Shown here in pieces: positions 8,554-15,979 of a stretch of 64,000 bases of DNA (its first letter is position 1; each line of letters begins with the position of its first letter). The stretch is from positions 4,370-68,369 of the forward strand of contig JBMYRW010000007.1 of NCBI GenBank assembly GCA_049602735.1, in the 5' to 3' direction. Below the pieces are notes generated by a model, which did no database searches, was not told the DNA's origin, and saw nothing but the letters and a program-made list of their open reading frames with translations. The position numbers were made by a program, and so were the translations under genes. This stretch comes from Thermoplasmatota archaeon (lineage in GTDB: Archaea; Thermoplasmatota; E2; JACPAO01; JAHFTW01).

Positions 8554-8731
8554 ACGGGTCGAAGGTGGTGGCATGACCCGGCCGCGGGCGGCTGGTCAAA
8601 GCGCCCGTCGGCAACCCCCATGACACGGCCAAAGGCAGAAGCGTTGGCTCTGCACAGAACCCGCACACCCGCACCCGCCACTCGGCCCCTGTTGCGGCGC
8701 CTTCTTGAGGGGCACCCGCCTGCGCGGCTTG

Positions 8732-9874
8732 ATGCAGTTCGAGCTGACCGACGACCAGCGCATGATCCGCGACATGGTGCGCGAGTTCGCCGAGAAGGAG
8801 ATCATGCCCGTGGCCTCCAAGCACGACCACGAGCACACCTTCCCTGAAGCGACCGCCAAGCGCATGGGCGAACTGGGCCTCCTGGGCATCACGGTGCCTG
8901 AACAGTACGGCGGCCCCGGAGCCGACTACATCAGTTTCGCCGTCGTCGCCGAAGAGATCGCACGCGCCTGTGCGAGCCATTCGGTCATCTTCGGCGCCTG
9001 CGCCAGTCTCACCGTGAGCCCCATCCTCAACTGGGGCAACGAGGAGCAGAAGCAGGAATGGCTGCCGAAGCTCGCCAGCGGCGGCGCCATGGGCTGCTAC
9101 GCCCTCACCGAGCCCACCGCGGGCAGCGACGCCGGCAGTCTCCTCACGAAGGCCACCCGCGACGGCGACGAATACGTCCTGAGCGGCCAGAAGGTCTACA
9201 TCTCCAACGGCGCCGTGGCCGATGTCTGCATCGCCTTCGCCCGCACCGACCCCGACTCCAAGGACGCCCGCGGCGTCTCGGCCTTCATCGTCCCCACGGA
9301 CACGGAAGGCTTCCGCGTCGGCAAGAACGAAGAGAAGATGGGCCTCAACGCCTCCTACACGAACCAGATCTTCTTCGAGGATGTCCGCATCCCTGCCGAG
9401 AACATCCTTGGCAAGGAAGGCGACGGCTTCAAGGTCGCCATGAGCACCCTTGACGTCGGCCGCATCATGGCCGCCAGCGGCTCCACCGGCATCGCCCGCG
9501 CCGCCATGGAGGACTCCATCGCCTACGCCAAGGAGCGCGTCCAGTTCGGCGTGCCCATCGCGTCCCATCAGGCGATCCAGTGGAAGCTGGCCAACATGGA
9601 CGTCAACATCGCCGCGGCGCGCCAGCTCTACCTGAAGGCCGCCTGGCTCAAGGACCAGGGCAAGCCGTTCACGGTGGAAGCCAGCCGCGCCAAGCTGTTC
9701 GCCAGTGAGATGGCCATGGATGCCACCCTGGATGGCGTGCAGATCCACGGCGGCAACGGCTACACCAAGGACTACAACGTGGAGCGCTACGTCCGCGACA
9801 TCAAGATCTTCGAGATCTTCGAAGGCACCAGCGAAGTACAGCGGATGGTCATCGCGCGTTCGCTGCTCTCCTGA
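8732..9874 (+). CDS. Acyl-CoA dehydrogenase (short/branched-chain type)
   Basis: MQFELTDDQRMIRDMVREFAEKE..., YALTEPTAGSD, and the C-terminal IFEGTSEVQRMVIAR signature. The start is placed at ATG 8732 rather than the track start at 8705. Confidence 0.9.
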   Translation: MQFELTDDQRMIRDMVREFAEKEIMPVASKHDHEHTFPEATAKRMGELGLLGITVPEQYGGPGADYISFAVVAEEIARACASHSVIFGACASLTVSPILNWGNEEQKQEWLPKLASGGAMGCYALTEPTAGSDAGSLLTKATRDGDEYVLSGQKVYISNGAVADVCIAFARTDPDSKDARGVSAFIVPTDTEGFRVGKNEEKMGLNASYTNQIFFEDVRIPAENILGKEGDGFKVAMSTLDVGRIMAASGSTGIARAAMEDSIAYAKERVQFGVPIASHQAIQWKLANMDVNIAAARQLYLKAAWLKDQGKPFTVEASRAKLFASEMAMDATLDGVQIHGGNGYTKDYNVERYVRDIKIFEIFEGTSEVQRMVIARSLLS

Positions 9875-9989
9875 GCGTGGCTGCCGCCAGCGGGACCAGG
9901 CCGCGCGTGGCCCTCTCGCCTTCCGTGGTGATGATGCGGTCTGGCATCACGCTGGTCACTCTGGCGTTGTTCTGGCCGGCATCTGGCTC

Positions 9990-10226
9990 TTGTTCTCGGA
10001 CCCTACGGCGATCGATCACCCTGCGGTGATCATCTTCTGGTTGACGCCGCTGGGTACCGGACTGGCGCTCATCGTGGCTCCGGCTGCTTGCCTGGTGGGG
10101 CTCGTCCTTCATGCCCTGGGCCGTGGGCGCGTCCGCCTCGTCACGGCGGGGCTGGCCGCGTGCACGGTCCTGCTGCCCGGGTCATGGTGGATCTGGGCGC
10201 TCAACAGTCCACCTCCGGGCATCTGA
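9990..10226 (+). CDS. Possible small membrane protein (start unresolved)
   Basis: Hydrophobic reading frame (AVIIFWLTPLGTGLALIVAPAACLVGLVL...AACTVLLPGSWWIWAL) downstream of the acyl-CoA dehydrogenase. There is only a TTG candidate start, and a competing 32-codon hydrophobic ORF lies at 9931..10029 in another frame. Confidence 0.25.
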   Translation: MFSDPTAIDHPAVIIFWLTPLGTGLALIVAPAACLVGLVLHALGRGRVRLVTAGLAACTVLLPGSWWIWALNSPPPGI

Positions 10227-10351
10227 TCGTGGCCTGGCGGCCCTCATCGCAGCCGCCATCGGGGGTGGTTGGCCCGGTGCCGGAGCCGGACCTCCAACAT
10301 GTTCATCTGGAATGGACAGGTCCATGGTCTGAGCTTCTGCTCGTGATGACC

Positions 10352-10609
10352 ATGAAACGCGTCACCCTCCTGGTTGCTGCCAGTCTTCTGACCGCCCTCC
10401 TTCTCGTTCCCGCCCCCGCGGCCGCCACCGCGCCCGTGACGGTCGAGCCCTGTCACGGCCCCAGTGGCTCCCAAAGCCATGGGGTCTACCTGAACGGGGT
10501 GCTCTTGGTTTGCGCGGCGCTCTTCACGTACGTCGGTGAATGTGAGGGCTTCCATGGCTCCGGCGTGGGGCTCTACGTCAACGGCCGCGAGGTCTTCTGC
10601 ATCCATTAG
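10352..10609 (+). CDS. Small secreted Cys-rich protein, family A paralog 1
   Basis: MKRVTLLVAASLLTALLLVPAPAAATA signal peptide. The mature part is about 58 aa with 4 Cys and a C-terminal GLYVNGREVFCIH. It shares the A-family pattern with the next two genes. Confidence 0.75.
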   Translation: MKRVTLLVAASLLTALLLVPAPAAATAPVTVEPCHGPSGSQSHGVYLNGVLLVCAALFTYVGECEGFHGSGVGLYVNGREVFCIH

Positions 10610-10618
10610 AGGTGGACC

Positions 10619-10870
10619 ATGAAGGCTCTCCTCTACGCGACGACGCTCGCCTGCGCCCTTCTGCTGCTACCTGCGGCCCCTACTTCGGCCGCTCCCCTGG
10701 AGGTCAAGGACTGTCCGGCGCCGCCGGGCATGTACGGGACCGGCGTCTATTGGCAAGGGTTCATGCTGGTCTGCGTGCCCTCGCCGGCCAAGGTCGACGA
10801 ATGCCGCGGCTTCCATGGTCCCGGCATCGGCCTGTACGCCAACGGCCGCGAGGTCTTCTGCATCCATTGA
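10619..10870 (+). CDS. Small secreted Cys-rich protein, family A paralog 2
   Basis: Signal peptide MKALLYATTLACALLLLPAAPTSAA and a mature part APLEVKDCPAPPG..GVYWQG..VC...ECRGFHGPGIGLYANGREVFCIH. GGTGG lies 3 nt upstream of the ATG, which is 9 nt after the previous stop. Confidence 0.8.
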   Translation: MKALLYATTLACALLLLPAAPTSAAPLEVKDCPAPPGMYGTGVYWQGFMLVCVPSPAKVDECRGFHGPGIGLYANGREVFCIH

Positions 10871-10877
10871 GGTGAAC

Positions 10878-11129
10878 ATGAAGGGACGAATCCTCGCCAC
10901 GTGCATGGCACTCTTCATCGTGGGTCTTGCCCCTGCAACCCATGCCTCTGCACCGGTGGAAGTCCGTGAATGTCCGGCCCCTCTGGGCTCGTATGGCATC
11001 GGCGTCTACTGGAACGGCAACCAGATGGCCTGCGTTCCGCTGGATGTCTATGTTCGCCAATGTGCCGGCCATCCCAGTGCTGGCTACGAACTGGTGGTGT
11101 TCGGTCGCGGCATGGGCTGCATCCACTGA
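10878..11129 (+). CDS. Small secreted Cys-rich protein, family A paralog 3
   Basis: MKGRILATCMALFIVGLAPATHASA signal peptide and a mature part APVEVRECPAPLG..GVYWNG..AC...QCAGH...GRGMGCIH. GGTGA lies 2 nt upstream of the ATG, which is 7 nt after the previous stop. Confidence 0.8.
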   Translation: MKGRILATCMALFIVGLAPATHASAPVEVRECPAPLGSYGIGVYWNGNQMACVPLDVYVRQCAGHPSAGYELVVFGRGMGCIH

Positions 11130-11135
11130 ACCGAG

Positions 11136-11168
11136 CCTCCTCGATGTCCCTCCTCCCCCTTCTGTTTT
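11136..11168 (+). terminator. CT-rich tract after the family A operon
   Basis: cctcctcgatgtccctcctcccccttctgtttt lies immediately downstream of the third paralog. Confidence 0.35.
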
Positions 11169-11192
11169 GAACGCCATCCGGCTCGCCGAGGC

Positions 11193-12182
11193 GTGCACGC
11201 CGGCGTACCCCTGGCCACCGAATCCCGCAGCGGTCGCATCGAGGCGGTCCATCAGGGTCACGCGGTCCTGTTGGCGCCGGATGGCACGGTGGCTGCATCG
11301 TGGGGCGACCCGGAGCTGGCGACGTACTGGCGTAGCAGCGCCAAGCCGATCCAGGTGCTCACGTTCCTCGCGGCCGGCGGCCCGGGCGCGATCGGGCTCC
11401 CGGACGATGAGGTGGTTGCCCTCGCCTGCGCCAGCCATTCGACGCAGCAGCGCCACCTGGACCTGAGCCGTCGTTTCCTTGCGGCGGCGGGGCTGGTGGA
11501 GGCCGACTACGGTTGCGGCGGCCACGAACCGATCGGGCCGGGCGGGGTCCCGGGCCCGTGGTCGGCGGTCCATAACAACTGCTCCGGCAAGCACGCGGCC
11601 ATGCTGGCGGCGTGTCGGTTGCGTGGATGGCCGACTGAAGGATACCTGGACCCGCACCACCCGATCCAGCAGGCCATCCTGGCCGACGTGGCACGTCTCA
11701 CCGGCCGCGACGCGGCGTCCATCGAGGTGGGCGTGGACGGTTGCCGGGCGCCGACGTTCTGGTTGTCGCCCTTGGACCTGGCGCGGGCGTTCCAGCGCCT
11801 CGACCAGGAGCCAGTCGGGCAGCGCGTCTTCGATGCCATGGCCCTGTGGCCGGTGCTGGTCGGCGGCGAGGGGCGTTTCTGCACGGCGTTGCCCCGCGCG
11901 ACCCGCGGTGATGTGGTGGGCAAGGTGGGGGCCATGGGGCTCTACGTCGCCCTCCACCGACCCACGGGAGCTGCGCTGGCGGTCAAGGTCACCTCCGGGC
12001 CCCGCATGCCGGTGCAGGAATCGGTGGCGTGCGCGCTGGCGGAGGCGGCGGGGTGGCTGGACGACGACGCACGCTCGGCGCTGGCACCGTTCCAGCGGCA
12101 GGTCCTGATGGATACGCGCGGCTGTCCAGTTGGGGAGCTGGAGCCATCGCTACCGGGCGGCAACCACGTTTCCGGGCCCTGA
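11193..12182 (+). CDS. Asparaginase II family (PF06089-like) protein
   Basis: SRSGRIEAVHQGHAVLLAPDG..., WRSSAKPIQ, CASHS, NNCSGKHAAML and GVDGC are motifs characteristic of the Rhizobium-type asparaginase II family. GTG start. Confidence 0.65.
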   Translation: MHAGVPLATESRSGRIEAVHQGHAVLLAPDGTVAASWGDPELATYWRSSAKPIQVLTFLAAGGPGAIGLPDDEVVALACASHSTQQRHLDLSRRFLAAAGLVEADYGCGGHEPIGPGGVPGPWSAVHNNCSGKHAAMLAACRLRGWPTEGYLDPHHPIQQAILADVARLTGRDAASIEVGVDGCRAPTFWLSPLDLARAFQRLDQEPVGQRVFDAMALWPVLVGGEGRFCTALPRATRGDVVGKVGAMGLYVALHRPTGAALAVKVTSGPRMPVQESVACALAEAAGWLDDDARSALAPFQRQVLMDTRGCPVGELEPSLPGGNHVSGP

Positions 12183-12308: not shown

Positions 12309-12590
12309 ATGAAGACGAAGGCACTCCTGGCTATTGCACTACTTGCGACAACGGCGATCACCGTCGCTCCCCCGGCGGCTGCCCACCATCACTGCGACTC
12401 TCCGTTCAGTGACGTGCGCTACCTCTGCTACTACCTCGTCCACGACCCGTGGCGCGTCGTCTGCGACCAGATCAAGAAATACGTCGGGCCGGATCTTTGC
12501 TGGCTCGTCCCAAGCTTGACGGATGGAGCCCATCTCGCGGAATTGGAGCTGATCCAAAGCCCCATTGAAGGGTCGTCTCCTCAAGGGTAG
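12309..12590 (+). CDS. Small secreted Cys-rich protein, family B paralog 1
   Basis: Signal peptide MKTKALLAIALLATTAITVAPPAAA, then HHHCD...YLC...WRVVCDQIKKYVGPDLCW (4 Cys) and a variable tail. Confidence 0.8.
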   Translation: MKTKALLAIALLATTAITVAPPAAAHHHCDSPFSDVRYLCYYLVHDPWRVVCDQIKKYVGPDLCWLVPSLTDGAHLAELELIQSPIEGSSPQG

Positions 12591-12599
12591 CACGAACAT

Positions 12600-12627
12600 C
12601 ATCTCTTTTCCTTCCTTTCTTTTTTAT
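12600..12627 (+). terminator. T/C-rich tract after family B paralog 1
   Basis: catctcttttccttcctttcttttttat includes a T6 run, consistent with archaeal oligo-T termination. Confidence 0.45.
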
Positions 12628-12706
12628 CAATCGTGCAGGCAGCTAGATCTGCACCACGCCTCACGGCCTCTTCGACTCGACGCCAGGGCTCGCGGAATCG
12701 GAGCAA

Positions 12707-12719
12707 CGGTTCGGAACCG
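12707..12719. promoter_or_regulatory. Perfect palindrome CGGTTC-G-GAACCG upstream of family B paralog 2
   Basis: caaCGGTTCGGAACCGcc lies about 95 nt upstream of ATG 12813. A second inverted repeat GGTTT-N6-AAACC lies at 12723-12738. Confidence 0.5.
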
Positions 12720-12812
12720 CCTGGTTTTCGTACAAACCGAAGCTAGTATGGTATCTCAAATGTTGGATGGACTAGGTCGGATCGCTGCGGAAACGTAGCA
12801 GGATCGAACACC

Positions 12813-13079
12813 ATGAAATCCACCATGATTCTCGTATTGGGTCTGCTCTTGGCCACCCTAGGGCCCGCGAACCTAGGCTCCGCAGGCCACAACTGCGATC
12901 TGGAGAACCGGGACTTGGACTACGTCTGCGACAACTACCATTCTCCTGGAGGAATGACCTGCATCTGGATCAAGCACTACGTAGGGCCGGACCTGTGTTG
13001 GTTGCTCCATGAATGGTTCTTTGCCATTGGAGCCGATCTTGAGCCTACGCAACAGATTGCTGCCGGCCAACTTGACTGA
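12813..13079 (+). CDS. Small secreted Cys-rich protein, family B paralog 2
   Basis: Signal peptide MKSTMILVLGLLLATLGPANLGSA, then GHNCD...YVC...MTCIWIKHYVGPDLCW (4 Cys). Confidence 0.8.
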   Translation: MKSTMILVLGLLLATLGPANLGSAGHNCDLENRDLDYVCDNYHSPGGMTCIWIKHYVGPDLCWLLHEWFFAIGADLEPTQQIAAGQLD

Positions 13080-13103
13080 GTCGGCTGCACCCGGCCCCCA
13101 CGT

Positions 13104-13150
13104 CGCTTCTCGTTTTCCCCTCCATCGCCCTCGTTTCTTCGACCTCTTCT
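13104..13150 (+). terminator. CT-rich tract after family B paralog 2
   Basis: cgcttctcgttttcccctccatcgccctcgtttcttcgacctcttct. Confidence 0.4.
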
Positions 13151-13256
13151 GGAGGTTTCCGGCGATCGTCTGATCCGATGCTTATGAGCTGGTCCCGAAC
13201 CCACGGTTCTGCTGATGTTTCTCAGTAGAGCGATGGCTCCTACACTGATCAGAAAC

Positions 13257-13277
13257 GGTTCGGTTGTTCCACGAACC
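13257..13277. promoter_or_regulatory. Inverted repeat GGTTCG-N9-CGAACC upstream of family B paralog 3
   Basis: gaaacGGTTCGgttgttccaCGAACC lies about 75-90 nt upstream of ATG 13349. An additional GAACC-CAC-GGTTC lies at 13197-13209, and the direct repeat ccattggacag occurs at 13280-13290 and 13330-13340. Confidence 0.45.
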
Positions 13278-13348
13278 AGCCATTGGACAGTGGCTTAACC
13301 CTGGAACAGATTTCCGTCTCCTTGTCCCCCATTGGACAGGAACGAACC

Positions 13349-13648
13349 ATGAAGACGATGATGATCCTGATGACACTGATCGCGGCCTCCGCGATGATCC
13401 CGACCGCGCAGGCGGACCACGCGTGCCCCGACCCCGGCACCGACCGTGAATACATCTGTGAGAACATGCACACTCCTTGGAGGATCGTGTGCGATCAGAT
13501 CAAGAAGTACGTCGGTCCGAGCCTGTGCTGGATCTTCGGGGATCTCGAACATGAGGCCCAGACGGCGCTGTTCTCCGCGGCCGCTGGCGCCGAGTTCATC
13601 GATTTCCTGGGCGCCTCCGATTCGGATTCGTTCGAATCTCAAGCCTAG
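13349..13648 (+). CDS. Small secreted Cys-rich protein, family B paralog 3
   Basis: Signal peptide MKTMMILMTLIAASAMIPTAQA, then DHACP...YIC...WRIVCDQIKKYVGPSLCW (4 Cys) and an acidic tail. The start is taken at internal ATG 13349 of track ORF 13283..13648. Confidence 0.8.
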   Translation: MKTMMILMTLIAASAMIPTAQADHACPDPGTDREYICENMHTPWRIVCDQIKKYVGPSLCWIFGDLEHEAQTALFSAAAGAEFIDFLGASDSDSFESQA

Positions 13649-13741
13649 GCCTTGTAGGTAGGGGCTTCCCGATGCCGACGTAGCGCGGCTTCGGGGGCCT
13701 CTTCCCTTGCGGGTTAAGTGGCCTGCGGGTCTGGCCGCATC

Positions 13742-15979
13742 ATGGCCCTGGCAGACCTCGGCATGGACCCCCGCGTGGCGGCTGTGCTGGAAGACCAGGG
13801 CATCCAGGAGTTGTACCCGCCCCAGGTGGAGGCGTGGCAGGCGCTGCGTGGAGGCGGCAACGTCCTGGTGGCGGTGCCGACGGCGTCCGGCAAGAGCCTC
13901 GTGGCGTACCTGGCGATCCTGCACCGTTGGCTGGCGACGGGGAAGAAGGCGCTCTACATCGTGCCCTTGCGGGCGCTGGCGTCGGAGAAGCACGAAGAGC
14001 TGCAGGCGTTCAAGGAGCTCGGCCTCAAGGTGGGCCTCGCGACGGGCGACCTGGACGAGCGGGACCCGCGCCTCGGTCGCTTCGATGTCATCGTCTGCAC
14101 CTCCGAGAAGGCGGACAGCCTGCTGCGCCACCGCACGTCGTGGGTGGATGACATCGGCTGCGTGGTGGCGGACGAGCTCCACCTCATCCATGAGCCCAAG
14201 CGCGGCCCGACGCTGGAGGTGATCCTCAGCCGCTTCCGTGGCCTGCTGCCGGATGCCCAGATCGTCGGCCTTTCTGCCACGGTCACCAACGCGGCGCAGG
14301 TGGCCCGCTGGCTCGGCGCCGACCTCGTCCATTCCACGTGGCGCCCCGTCGACCTGCGCCTGGCGACGTACCACGGCAACGCCCTGGAGTTCTGGCAGCC
14401 CCACGGCGAGAAACGGGAGCTGGAAGCGGGCGGCGACCCCGTGGTGGGACTCGTGGAGGACGCCATCGACCAAGGCGGCCAGGCCCTGGTGTTCGTGAGC
14501 ACCCGGCGATCGGCCGAGGCCCAGGCGAAGCGCCTTGCCGGCCCGGTCGCCGCCAAGCTCAACGCCGAAGAACTGGCGGCGCTGGAAGAGGCCGTCGGGG
14601 AGCTGGCCAAGGGCAGCGGCGACGACGTGCCGTCCAACGTCAAGGCCCTCCAACTCCTGGTCAAGCGCGGCGCCAGCTACCACACGGCGGGACTCGACTC
14701 GGCGCAACGACGCTTCATCGAGGACGCCTTCCGCCGCGGCCTGATCAAGGTCCTGTGCGCCACGCCGACCCTGGCGGCCGGCGTCAACACCCCCGCCCGG
14801 CGGGTCATCATCCGCGACCTGCGGCGCTTCGAGGCCGGCTATGGCAACGTGCCGCTGCCGGTGATGGAGGTGCAGCAGATGATGGGGCGCGCCGGCCGGC
14901 CCCGTTACGACCCCTACGGCGAAGCGGTCCTCTTGGCCAAGAGCGCCGAAGAGCGCGACGCCATCGTCGAGACGTACCTCCTGGGGGAATCGGAGCCGGT
15001 CACGAGCAAGCTGGCCGGCGAAGGGCCCCTGCGCATCCACACGCTGGCCAGCATCGCCGGCGGCTACTGCGCCACCTTCGCCGAGCTGCGCGCCTGGCTG
15101 GAGTCCACCTTCTGGGCCGCCGAGACCGACACGTGGATCCTCGAAGAACGCCTGGAGGACGTGCTCTGGTTCCTGGAGGACAACGGCTTCGTGGAGCGGG
15201 ACGGCGGCCAGCTGCGCGCGACGCTGTTCGGCAAGCGCACCAGCGACCTCTACATCGACCCCGCCTCCGCGCTCCGTCTGCGGGAAGCCCTCGGCTCCGC
15301 CCGGCCCAAGGCGACGGACATGGGCCTGCTGACCGCTGTGGCCGGCTGCCCCGAAGTGTTCCCGCTCTACCTGCGCAAGGCGGACGACTGGGTGCAGGAA
15401 CGCTACTGGGAACTGGAAGGGGAATGGCTCGTGGACGACCGCGACATGGAGGCGGCCATGAGCTTCGCGAAGACCGCGCTGCTGCTGCGGGACTGGATGA
15501 ACGAGGTGCCGCAGCGGGACATGGAGGAACGGTACCAGATCGGCCCCGGCGACGTCCGGCTGCGCCTCGATACCGCGCGCTGGCTCGTCCACGCGTTCCG
15601 TGAACTGGCCCGCGCCTTCCGCGCCGACTGGCAGGCCCACCTGGCCGAGATCGGCGTCCGTCTCGAATCCGGCGTCAAGAAGGAGCTCCTCCCGCTCCTG
15701 AAGCTCCGCAACGTGGGCCGCGTCCGCGCCCGCACCCTCCACGCCGCCGGCTTCCACACGCCGGACGCCCTCAAGGGAGCCCCCGTCGCGCGGCTGGCTG
15801 CCCTCGCTGGGGTCGGCGACCGCATCGCCCGCGACCTCCTGCGCCAAGTGGGCGACGACCCGGATGTGGCGCCCAAGGAGCAGCCCCCCGCTCCGAAGGC
15901 GAACCCGGACGAGGACGACGGGGCCCCGCCCACGCCGGACAACGGTCAAGCCAGTCTGGCACAATGGGGGGGCGCGTGA
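13742..15979 (+). CDS. hel308: Ski2-like DNA helicase Hel308
   Basis: ELYPPQVEAW, Walker A PTASGKS, the DELH box (VVADELHLI), ATPTLAAGVNTPARRV and MMGRAGRP. The N-terminus MALADLG fits Hel308 better than the GTG at 13718. Confidence 0.9.
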   Translation: MALADLGMDPRVAAVLEDQGIQELYPPQVEAWQALRGGGNVLVAVPTASGKSLVAYLAILHRWLATGKKALYIVPLRALASEKHEELQAFKELGLKVGLATGDLDERDPRLGRFDVIVCTSEKADSLLRHRTSWVDDIGCVVADELHLIHEPKRGPTLEVILSRFRGLLPDAQIVGLSATVTNAAQVARWLGADLVHSTWRPVDLRLATYHGNALEFWQPHGEKRELEAGGDPVVGLVEDAIDQGGQALVFVSTRRSAEAQAKRLAGPVAAKLNAEELAALEEAVGELAKGSGDDVPSNVKALQLLVKRGASYHTAGLDSAQRRFIEDAFRRGLIKVLCATPTLAAGVNTPARRVIIRDLRRFEAGYGNVPLPVMEVQQMMGRAGRPRYDPYGEAVLLAKSAEERDAIVETYLLGESEPVTSKLAGEGPLRIHTLASIAGGYCATFAELRAWLESTFWAAETDTWILEERLEDVLWFLEDNGFVERDGGQLRATLFGKRTSDLYIDPASALRLREALGSARPKATDMGLLTAVAGCPEVFPLYLRKADDWVQERYWELEGEWLVDDRDMEAAMSFAKTALLLRDWMNEVPQRDMEERYQIGPGDVRLRLDTARWLVHAFRELARAFRADWQAHLAEIGVRLESGVKKELLPLLKLRNVGRVRARTLHAAGFHTPDALKGAPVARLAALAGVGDRIARDLLRQVGDDPDVAPKEQPPAPKANPDEDDGAPPTPDNGQASLAQWGGA

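Follow-up and report, generated by a model that had tools for sequence, protein, structure and literature searches.

A tandem cysteine-bracketed repeat in small, apparently exported proteins of an uncultured Thermoplasmatota lineage

Three adjacent genes of a Thermoplasmatota archaeon (assembly GCA_049602735.1, contig JBMYRW010000007.1, positions 4,370 to 68,369; this whole 64,000-nucleotide stretch is referred to below as the window) encode small, signal-peptide-bearing proteins, here named A1, A2, and A3, whose mature domain of 59 residues is a tandem duplication of a cysteine-bracketed unit of about 27 residues. The repeat family so defined is previously undescribed and restricted to a single lineage, at family level, of uncultured Thermoplasmatota, in which its members carry between two and about 12 units and lie, nearly without exception, in a single variable interval of the chromosome. 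The evidence leans, by a modest margin over even chances, toward non-enzymatic beta modules, exported and stapled by disulfides, with a role at the cell surface, a view whose confidence rests mostly on its architectural part.

Three adjacent genes and their repeat unit

As the sequence-only reading of this DNA had reported, the three genes are plus-strand open reading frames (ORFs) for 85, 83, and 83 aa, namely A1 (10352–10609), A2 (10619–10870), and A3 (10878–11129; the most divergent paralogue), with stop codons included in the coordinates, and they are separated by just 9 nt (10610–10618) and 7 nt (10871–10877). Each of the two downstream genes has its own Shine-Dalgarno site, again as claimed: AGGTGG at 10610–10615 (+), read from the sequence 3 nt before the ATG of A2, and GGTGA at 10871–10875 (+), 2 nt before the ATG of A3 and directly 3' of the A2 stop codon, which its leading A overlaps. 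Reading the sequence upstream of A1, for which an alternative ATG occurs at 10346, revealed no Shine-Dalgarno site, and A1 may therefore have a leaderless or short-leader transcript. Beyond A3, a CT-rich tract on the plus strand (11140–11170) ending in TTCTGTTTTG may be an archaeal terminator of the oligo-T type for the operon; a scan for bacterial-type terminators made no call there.

The coding character of the genes is well marked. Guanine-cytosine content at third codon positions (GC3) is 0.80, 0.83, and 0.67 for A1, A2, and A3, respectively, and exceeds that at first positions, which in turn exceeds that at second positions, a pattern like that of the flanking genes; ratios of non-synonymous to synonymous substitution rates (dN/dS) between pairs of the paralogues are 0.23–0.53. 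On the strength of this codon bias and these ratios, A1–A3 are genuine genes subject to purifying selection. No further copies occur in the 2.26-Mb metagenome-assembled genome (MAG; 79 contigs, 89% complete). The GC3 of A3 is clearly below those of A1 and A2 and those of the flanking genes (0.86–0.92), and is matched by similarly low values (0.68–0.82) in the three paralogous genes of a second small-protein family, family B, further downstream; the low value in A3 could stem from poorer codon adaptation, or from an origin that is recent or foreign. The final 27 coding nucleotides of A1 (10580–10606) and A2 (10841–10867) are identical in genes that elsewhere share about 65% of their positions, which suggests either gene conversion or strong constraint on the ...NGREVFCIH C-terminus.

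Full-length identity to A1 is 54% for A2 and 37% for A3, and becomes 56% and 46% over the mature domain. Alignment of the three yields 21 invariant columns, including the four cysteines (C34, C54, C64, and C83 of A1) and the terminal C-I-H that the sequence-only reading had singled out. Judged by eye, the N-termini have the form of Sec-type signal peptides: a positively charged MK(R) opening leads into a hydrophobic stretch, and a small-x-small site precedes A-P (residues 1–26 in A1, leaving 59). The residues preceding A-P are A-T-A in A1, A-S-A in A3, and S-A-A or T-S-A in A2, and the description of all three signal peptides as ending in A-x-A is thus strictly correct for A1 and A3 only. A lipobox or pilin-type signal was considered and rejected on reading the sequences. 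The mature proteins lack a membrane anchor and have an even cysteine count; they are mildly acidic (isoelectric point 5.6–6.0), have grand average of hydropathy (GRAVY) values of +0.11 to +0.44, and contain 15–17% glycine. Two histidines are conserved among A1–A3: His42 (His41 in A3) and the terminal His59, in mature numbering, in which the second cysteine pair is C38–C57.

Unit alignments reduce the mature domain to two copies of the consensus [PIV]-V-E-V-[RK]-x-C, a Gly/Pro-rich loop of 3–8 residues, G-x-G-[VI]-Y-V-x-G, x(4-6), C. The halves of each window protein align with Smith-Waterman z-scores of 4.4–5.4 against shuffled sequences (p about 0.001), and the similarity extends across proteins, unit 1 of A3 aligning with unit 2 of A2 at z = 9.3. 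The family was defined by at least two tandem units of the form xVEVxxC-x(3-8)-G-x-x-[VI]-[YV]-V-x-G-x(4-6)-C, with an invariant glycine and two cysteines per unit. In A1, unit 1 (PVTVEPC...VCAA; 10433–10519; C34–C54, a spacing of 20) scores 42 bits against the unit profile, the match lying at G000:C7:14802-14885 in genome coordinates, and unit 2 (FTYVGEC...FCIH; 10523–10606; C64–C83, a spacing of 19) scores 46 bits. The two units of A2 (PLEVKDC...VCVP, 10694–10780; PAKVDEC...FCIH, 10784–10867) reach 47 bits each, and those of A3 (PVEVREC...ACVP, 10953–11039; DVYVRQC...GCIH, 11043–11126) reach 49 and 44 bits; all six, which read on the plus strand, therefore fall within the definition at 42–49 bits.

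Across the 23 family proteins tabulated, the cysteine number is even in every one (23/23), and cysteines are 13–20 residues apart within a unit (mostly 16–20) and 4–24 apart between units. Because the numbers are even, and the spacing is tight within units and free between them, each unit is probably closed by its own disulfide (C1–C2 and C3–C4 in the two-unit proteins), and the two disulfides that the sequence-only reading had thought probable are plausible.

Distribution and chromosomal setting of the family

When a profile hidden Markov model (HMM) of the mature domain was run against 1.84 billion representative proteins, the credible relatives beyond the window proteins themselves were only P0006 (142 aa, E 2.3e-8) and P0007 (135 aa, E 2.7e-6), both secreted, each matched in two stretches and each holding three copies of the unit motif; P0003–P0005 were rejected as repeat-inflated false positives (eukaryote-like or low-complexity repeat proteins). 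Iterated searches of a 5.8-billion-cluster protein collection added P0009, P0010, P0013–15, and P0017–24, all of them unnamed or labelled "hypothetical protein" and all from Thermoplasmatota or Thermoplasmata MAGs; the MAGs of the organism's relatives include some that bear the label "Mix_sand". The 23 proteins tabulated come from searches of collections as large as 5.8 billion protein clusters and 15 billion sequences. Less productive approaches included a word-seeded search with A2 alone, which found only A2 itself; a full-length profile of the three sequences applied to 60 relatives, which returned only signal-peptide or low-complexity noise (E >= 4e-4) and was replaced by the unit-level profile; and back-translated pattern scans of metagenome and genome contigs, which found nothing new. 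An HMM built from non-window units only ranked A3, A1, and A2 (E 8e-5, 1.7e-4, and 6e-3, respectively) as the top three among 34,601 six-frame ORFs of the genome, the next ORF having an E-value of 0.52; the relationship is therefore not circular.

The claim that the proteins belong to no described family has held up. A1–A3 have no Pfam match at E<=1, and seven relatives have none at E<=10 apart from one noise match. The sole NCBIfam match, that of A1 to an enediyne antibiotic chromoprotein model (NF040680), was rejected, as it scores 13.1 bits (E 0.067) against a cut-off of 86 and covers residues 8–66, mostly the signal peptide region. A sequence-profile search of the PDB gave no significant match to a solved fold (best E 1.1), and a search of the literature found no description of such proteins.

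In a distribution scan of 197 genomes of the class (77 genera) with a strict single-unit profile, matches were obtained in five of the 32 genomes of the window's family, in none of the six other genomes of the order, and in none of the 165 class genomes outside the window's family. Reading the DNA downstream of orthologues of the gene for the acyl-CoA dehydrogenase (ACAD) that precedes A1 added two carriers, G019 and G010. The tabulated proteins comprise two-unit forms of 81–105 aa and three-unit forms of 125–142 aa, together with a 215-aa protein of about seven units in G019 and a 394-aa protein of about 12 units in G005, where a 102-aa two-unit gene follows; the G014 orthologue of the 394-aa protein is split over two contigs. 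In these longest relatives (L048:4705-5886 in G005; L029/L049 in G014), some of the linkers that follow units hold additional C-P-P-C-C or C-R-P-C-C motifs, and the mature G005 protein has 28 cysteines in all; the small family proteins are without such linker motifs. C-termini also differ: the relatives end in CIY, CIQP, CRFGPPPP, CLG, CV, or CWH (the last in P0024), and C-I-H is found only in the A1–A3 subfamily.

The repeat proteins diverge much faster than the flanking ACAD, orthologues of which are present in all 32 genomes of the family at 72–81% identity. Between G016 and G010 the repeat proteins are 67% identical and the ACADs 89%; between the window and other genera the figures are 32–39% and 76–78%. 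Amino-acid identity relative to ACAD is given here instead of dN/dS, which is saturated between orthologues of different species (proportion of synonymous differences, pS, 0.74).

In the window, the gene order is ACAD (8705–9874), A1–A3, an asparaginase-II-family gene (11193–12182; PF06089, E 2.6e-88), the three family B genes (12309–13648), and a Hel308-type helicase gene (13718–15979), the ACAD, asparaginase II, and Hel308 genes being on the plus strand. An ACAD orthologue precedes repeat genes in G005, G010, G016, G019, G028, L024, and L152, and a Hel308 orthologue follows them in G028, L024, L025, L152, and L153. The G019 locus repeats the order of the window (ACAD, the seven-unit gene, asparaginase II); in G005 and G014, ACAD is followed by the gene of about 12 units and a two-unit gene, and in G016 and G010 by a gene for a 212-aa secreted protein and a two-unit gene. 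In G028, ACAD lies ahead of a cupredoxin gene on the opposite strand, a two-unit gene, and Hel308. L024 runs from ACAD by way of P0009 to DUF2238, P0006, and Hel308; L025 holds P0007, cupredoxin, P0010, and Hel308; L152 has ACAD, then cupredoxin, P0020, and Hel308; and in L153 three family members precede Hel308. Nearly all placed members thus sit in the ACAD–Hel308 interval, the exception being one extra copy in G028 (L051), found elsewhere.

This interval is a conserved hot spot in which genes for small secreted proteins are gained, lost, duplicated, and remodelled. Its contents vary by genome (window, L024, L048, L050, L056, L058, L152, and L153), consisting of small secreted or membrane proteins that include the Cys-repeat family, family B, cupredoxin, DUF7501, DUF2238, the 212-aa secreted protein, and a 78-aa Cys-rich ORF. 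In G003, G017, and G025 the order is ACAD–asparaginase II–(small membrane protein)–Hel308, with no repeat gene, and G002 has two small membrane proteins in the interval. A functional link of the repeat genes to the asparaginase-II gene, whose conservation as a neighbour had been put forward for checking, was accordingly rejected as merely positional, given that the ACAD–asparaginase II–Hel308 arrangement persists where no repeat gene is present. Neither the internal duplication, nor the relatives of three to about 12 units, nor the shared interval had been recognised in the sequence-only reading.

Several other small frames accompany these genes. Between ACAD and A1, an open frame at 9876–10226 (+) with two or three predicted membrane helices (...VVLAGIWLLFS...IIFWLTPLGTGLALIVAPAACLVGLVLHAL...) is a candidate gene, its only visible in-frame start 3' of the ACAD stop being a TTG near 9990; small membrane proteins hold the same interval in G002 and G003. 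At a contig edge in the MAG of G016, upstream of that MAG's RtcA-like and asparaginase-II genes, a partial, Cys-rich, secreted-looking ORF (L023:1-159, +; ...HPHFCKVREVVCIEEGYQCQFSHCHCYYLLGDELFCEY) has no match to the repeat profile. In G010, the 78-aa ORF mentioned above (L056:1446-1679; six cysteines, ...CNMAYQTCVISTPKDWYQCNDPCGQGQC) directly follows the two-unit gene; it has no Pfam match and is absent from the orthologous region of G016 as called. The small cupredoxin gene (PF13473/PF00127), on the opposite strand, adjoins repeat genes at L025:509-862, in L058 (G028), at L152:4570-4920, and at L153:6248-6601, and in L025 and L153 repeat genes flank it on both sides.

Candidate roles at the cell surface and elsewhere

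From the architecture described above we infer export, signal-peptide cleavage, disulfide pairing, fold, and a structural or binding role at the surface. One gene for a small Sec-exported protein would have been triplicated in tandem to give the operon, and each product, cut at A-x-A|AP, would leave a 59-residue mature protein of two homologous units. Each unit is envisaged as a short beta-strand followed by a beta-hairpin, its ends stapled by the in-unit disulfide, such that two units would together form a six-stranded, all-beta mini-domain; the AlphaFold2 model of the mature A1 domain, built on the alignment of the three paralogues (3 sequences), has six beta strands, three per unit, at a mean predicted local distance difference test (pLDDT) score of 77. 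The proteins would act outside the cell and without catalysis, as rigid binding or structural modules of the cell surface (coat or adhesive components), and the three paralogues could be co-expressed to co-assemble as subunits. Surface or structural modules typically combine a signal peptide with a repeat number that varies and have no catalytic motif, as is the case here. Given the range of two to about 12 units and the lack of a conserved partner gene for an enzyme, an immunity protein, a receptor, or a transporter, such a role is more likely than that of diffusible toxins or metal carriers.

Several considerations weigh against this assignment. The proteins have no membrane anchor, PGF-CTERM, or other attachment signal, which leaves their retention at the surface unexplained, and no conserved partner gene suggests a route of surface assembly. 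No disulfide oxidase of the vitamin K epoxide reductase (VKOR) type was found in the 89%-complete MAG, in which other disulfide oxidoreductases were not searched for. The A1 model draws on only three sequences, and the model of a 369-aa relative from G005 (four-row alignment) is unusable at a pLDDT of 35. Moreover, strands 1 and 3 would not be neighbours in a plain three-stranded meander, and the modelled topology and in-unit pairing may not both hold. A structural or binding function is, in short, the default conclusion from architecture and not a positive finding.

The alternative that survives best, although it is an improbable one, is that of archaeocin- or bacteriocin-like antagonism, wherein the three paralogues would constitute a cocktail of small disulfide-stabilised toxins directed at competitors and diversified by an arms race. 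The size of the mature proteins, their hydrophobicity, their glycine content, and their stabilising cysteines would all suit such a role, as would the tandem paralogues, the restriction of the family to one lineage, its fast divergence relative to its neighbours, and its location in a variable island shared with further small secreted Cys proteins. On the other hand, none of the loci read has a conserved neighbouring gene for immunity, processing, or dedicated export; the neighbours are ACAD, asparaginase II, Hel308, cupredoxin, and small membrane or unknown proteins. The mature proteins are mildly acidic and not cationic, dN/dS is below 1, and, noise aside, no halocin or bacteriocin model of Pfam or NCBIfam is matched. 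Relatives of 215–394 aa with 7–12 units are not bacteriocin-like either; they fit poorly with classical archaeocins and with signalling peptides alike.

Extracytoplasmic handling of metal, copper in particular, is less probable still, and would have the histidine near the second cysteine pair (C-x-G-F-H/C-x-G-H) and the C-I-H terminus bind copper or some other metal, for instance as a source or buffer for a secreted cupredoxin. The two conserved histidines of A1–A3 would indeed adjoin the C38–C57 pair, P0024 ends in C-W-H, and in four related loci (L025, G028/L058, L152, and L153) the cupredoxin gene stands directly beside repeat genes, albeit on the opposite strand. Against this, no metal-ligand motif is conserved across the family: the histidines occur only in A1–A3, save for the CWH end of P0024, the remaining relatives have the other C-termini listed above, and the multi-unit forms show no repeated histidine pattern. 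The even number of cysteines and their unit-bracketing positions favour structural disulfides over thiolate ligands, and the window interval is without a cupredoxin gene, the genome's only homologue (38% identity; G000:C11:22062-22397) being on another contig in an unrelated context. Because C-I-H is specific to the A1–A3 subfamily, the Cys/His metal site hinted at in the sequence-only reading cannot be the general function of the family.

Comparably long odds attach to a bolder form of the surface proposal, in which the unit would be the rung or bead of a self-assembling extracellular archaeal polymer and stapled hairpins would be stacked into fibres or a coat. The three two-unit paralogues would then be co-polymerising major, minor, and nucleator subunits, as in curli or chaplins, and the 7–12-unit proteins found in sister genera would be versions already joined covalently. 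The cysteine spacing of about 19–20 residues may correspond to roughly one turn of a two-stranded beta-solenoid, with which in-register stacking of the cysteines would be compatible. The chaplin domain and curlin repeat profiles of Pfam match nothing in A1–A3 or the seven relatives, and a paper on archaeal sheaths makes no mention of Thermoplasmatota or cysteine.

It is very unlikely that the proteins are secreted signalling peptides or pheromones, released through Sec and sensed by neighbouring cells; they are small, exported, paralogous, and lineage-specific, as such signals might be, yet no sensor kinase or receptor is conserved alongside in the loci read, and known prokaryotic signals are much smaller and much less modular than proteins of 59 residues with two disulfides, let alone relatives of 7–12 units. 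Spurious ORFs, of which high-GC DNA yields many long examples and of which overlapping ones are seen here, are refuted for practical purposes by conservation, inasmuch as cysteines and glycines are invariant, GC3 bias and dN/dS are of the coding type, ribosome-binding sites stand where they should, the syntenic site in several genera holds homologues that also bear signal peptides, and chance cannot give three adjacent same-strand ORFs with signal peptides and 37–54% identity.

Significance and comparison with known systems

The analysis defines a new and very rare protein repeat, an orphan family whose origin apparently lies within a single family of uncultured Thermoplasmatota. The case is a clean natural example of the birth and spread of a tiny disulfide-stapled module, in which the steps remain visible: units were duplicated within genes (two to about 12), whole genes were duplicated to give the three-gene operon, and the genes were reshuffled at a single chromosomal hot spot. 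For archaeal cell biology, the family flags candidates for surface or secreted components in a lineage whose envelope is undescribed, and, were the polymer proposal true, they would represent a surface-structure system not previously seen in Thermoplasmatota; for protein design, the unit provides a minimal (about 27-aa) Cys-closed beta module. The finding is at this point more a lead than a discovery; its evolutionary picture is clear and new.

The nearest comparison within the window is family B, which shares with A1–A3 the ACAD–Hel308 island, three paralogues, a signal peptide, four cysteines, and orphan status, but which has no internal repeat and consists of standalone genes, whereas A1–A3 form an operon coupled by Shine-Dalgarno sites; homology of the two families was rejected (hhalign probability 7.8%). 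Comparisons with chaplins and curli, halocins, and beta-hairpin peptides are functional analogies and imply no homology, and profile searches placed the proteins in none of these groups. The short and long chaplins of Streptomyces and the curli proteins CsgA and CsgB are likewise small, Sec-exported, Gly/Val/Asn-rich, and beta-prone, occur as several, often adjacent paralogues, and are built of imperfect strand-turn-strand repeats of about 20–50 residues whose number varies between paralogues and species. Chaplins carry a conserved cysteine pair; in the A family, by contrast, each unit has its own, and accessory secretion or nucleation genes like csgEFG are lacking here. Halocins and sulfolobicins (e.g., the Cys-rich halocin C8) resemble the family as small, hydrophobic, disulfide-stabilised, exported archaeal proteins of narrow taxonomic range, from which the A proteins differ in having no sequence or profile similarity to them, no fused or adjacent immunity protein, a signal of Sec and not Tat type, an acidic and not a basic or neutral character, and multi-unit relatives of up to 394 aa. 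Finally, the arenicin, tachyplesin, and protegrin class also employs one disulfide to close a ring of about 16–20 residues around a beta-hairpin with a central glycine turn; these, however, are single, strongly cationic hairpins of animals, whereas the units of the A family are neutral or acidic, would possess an extra N-terminal strand, and are concatenated in numbers from two to about 12.

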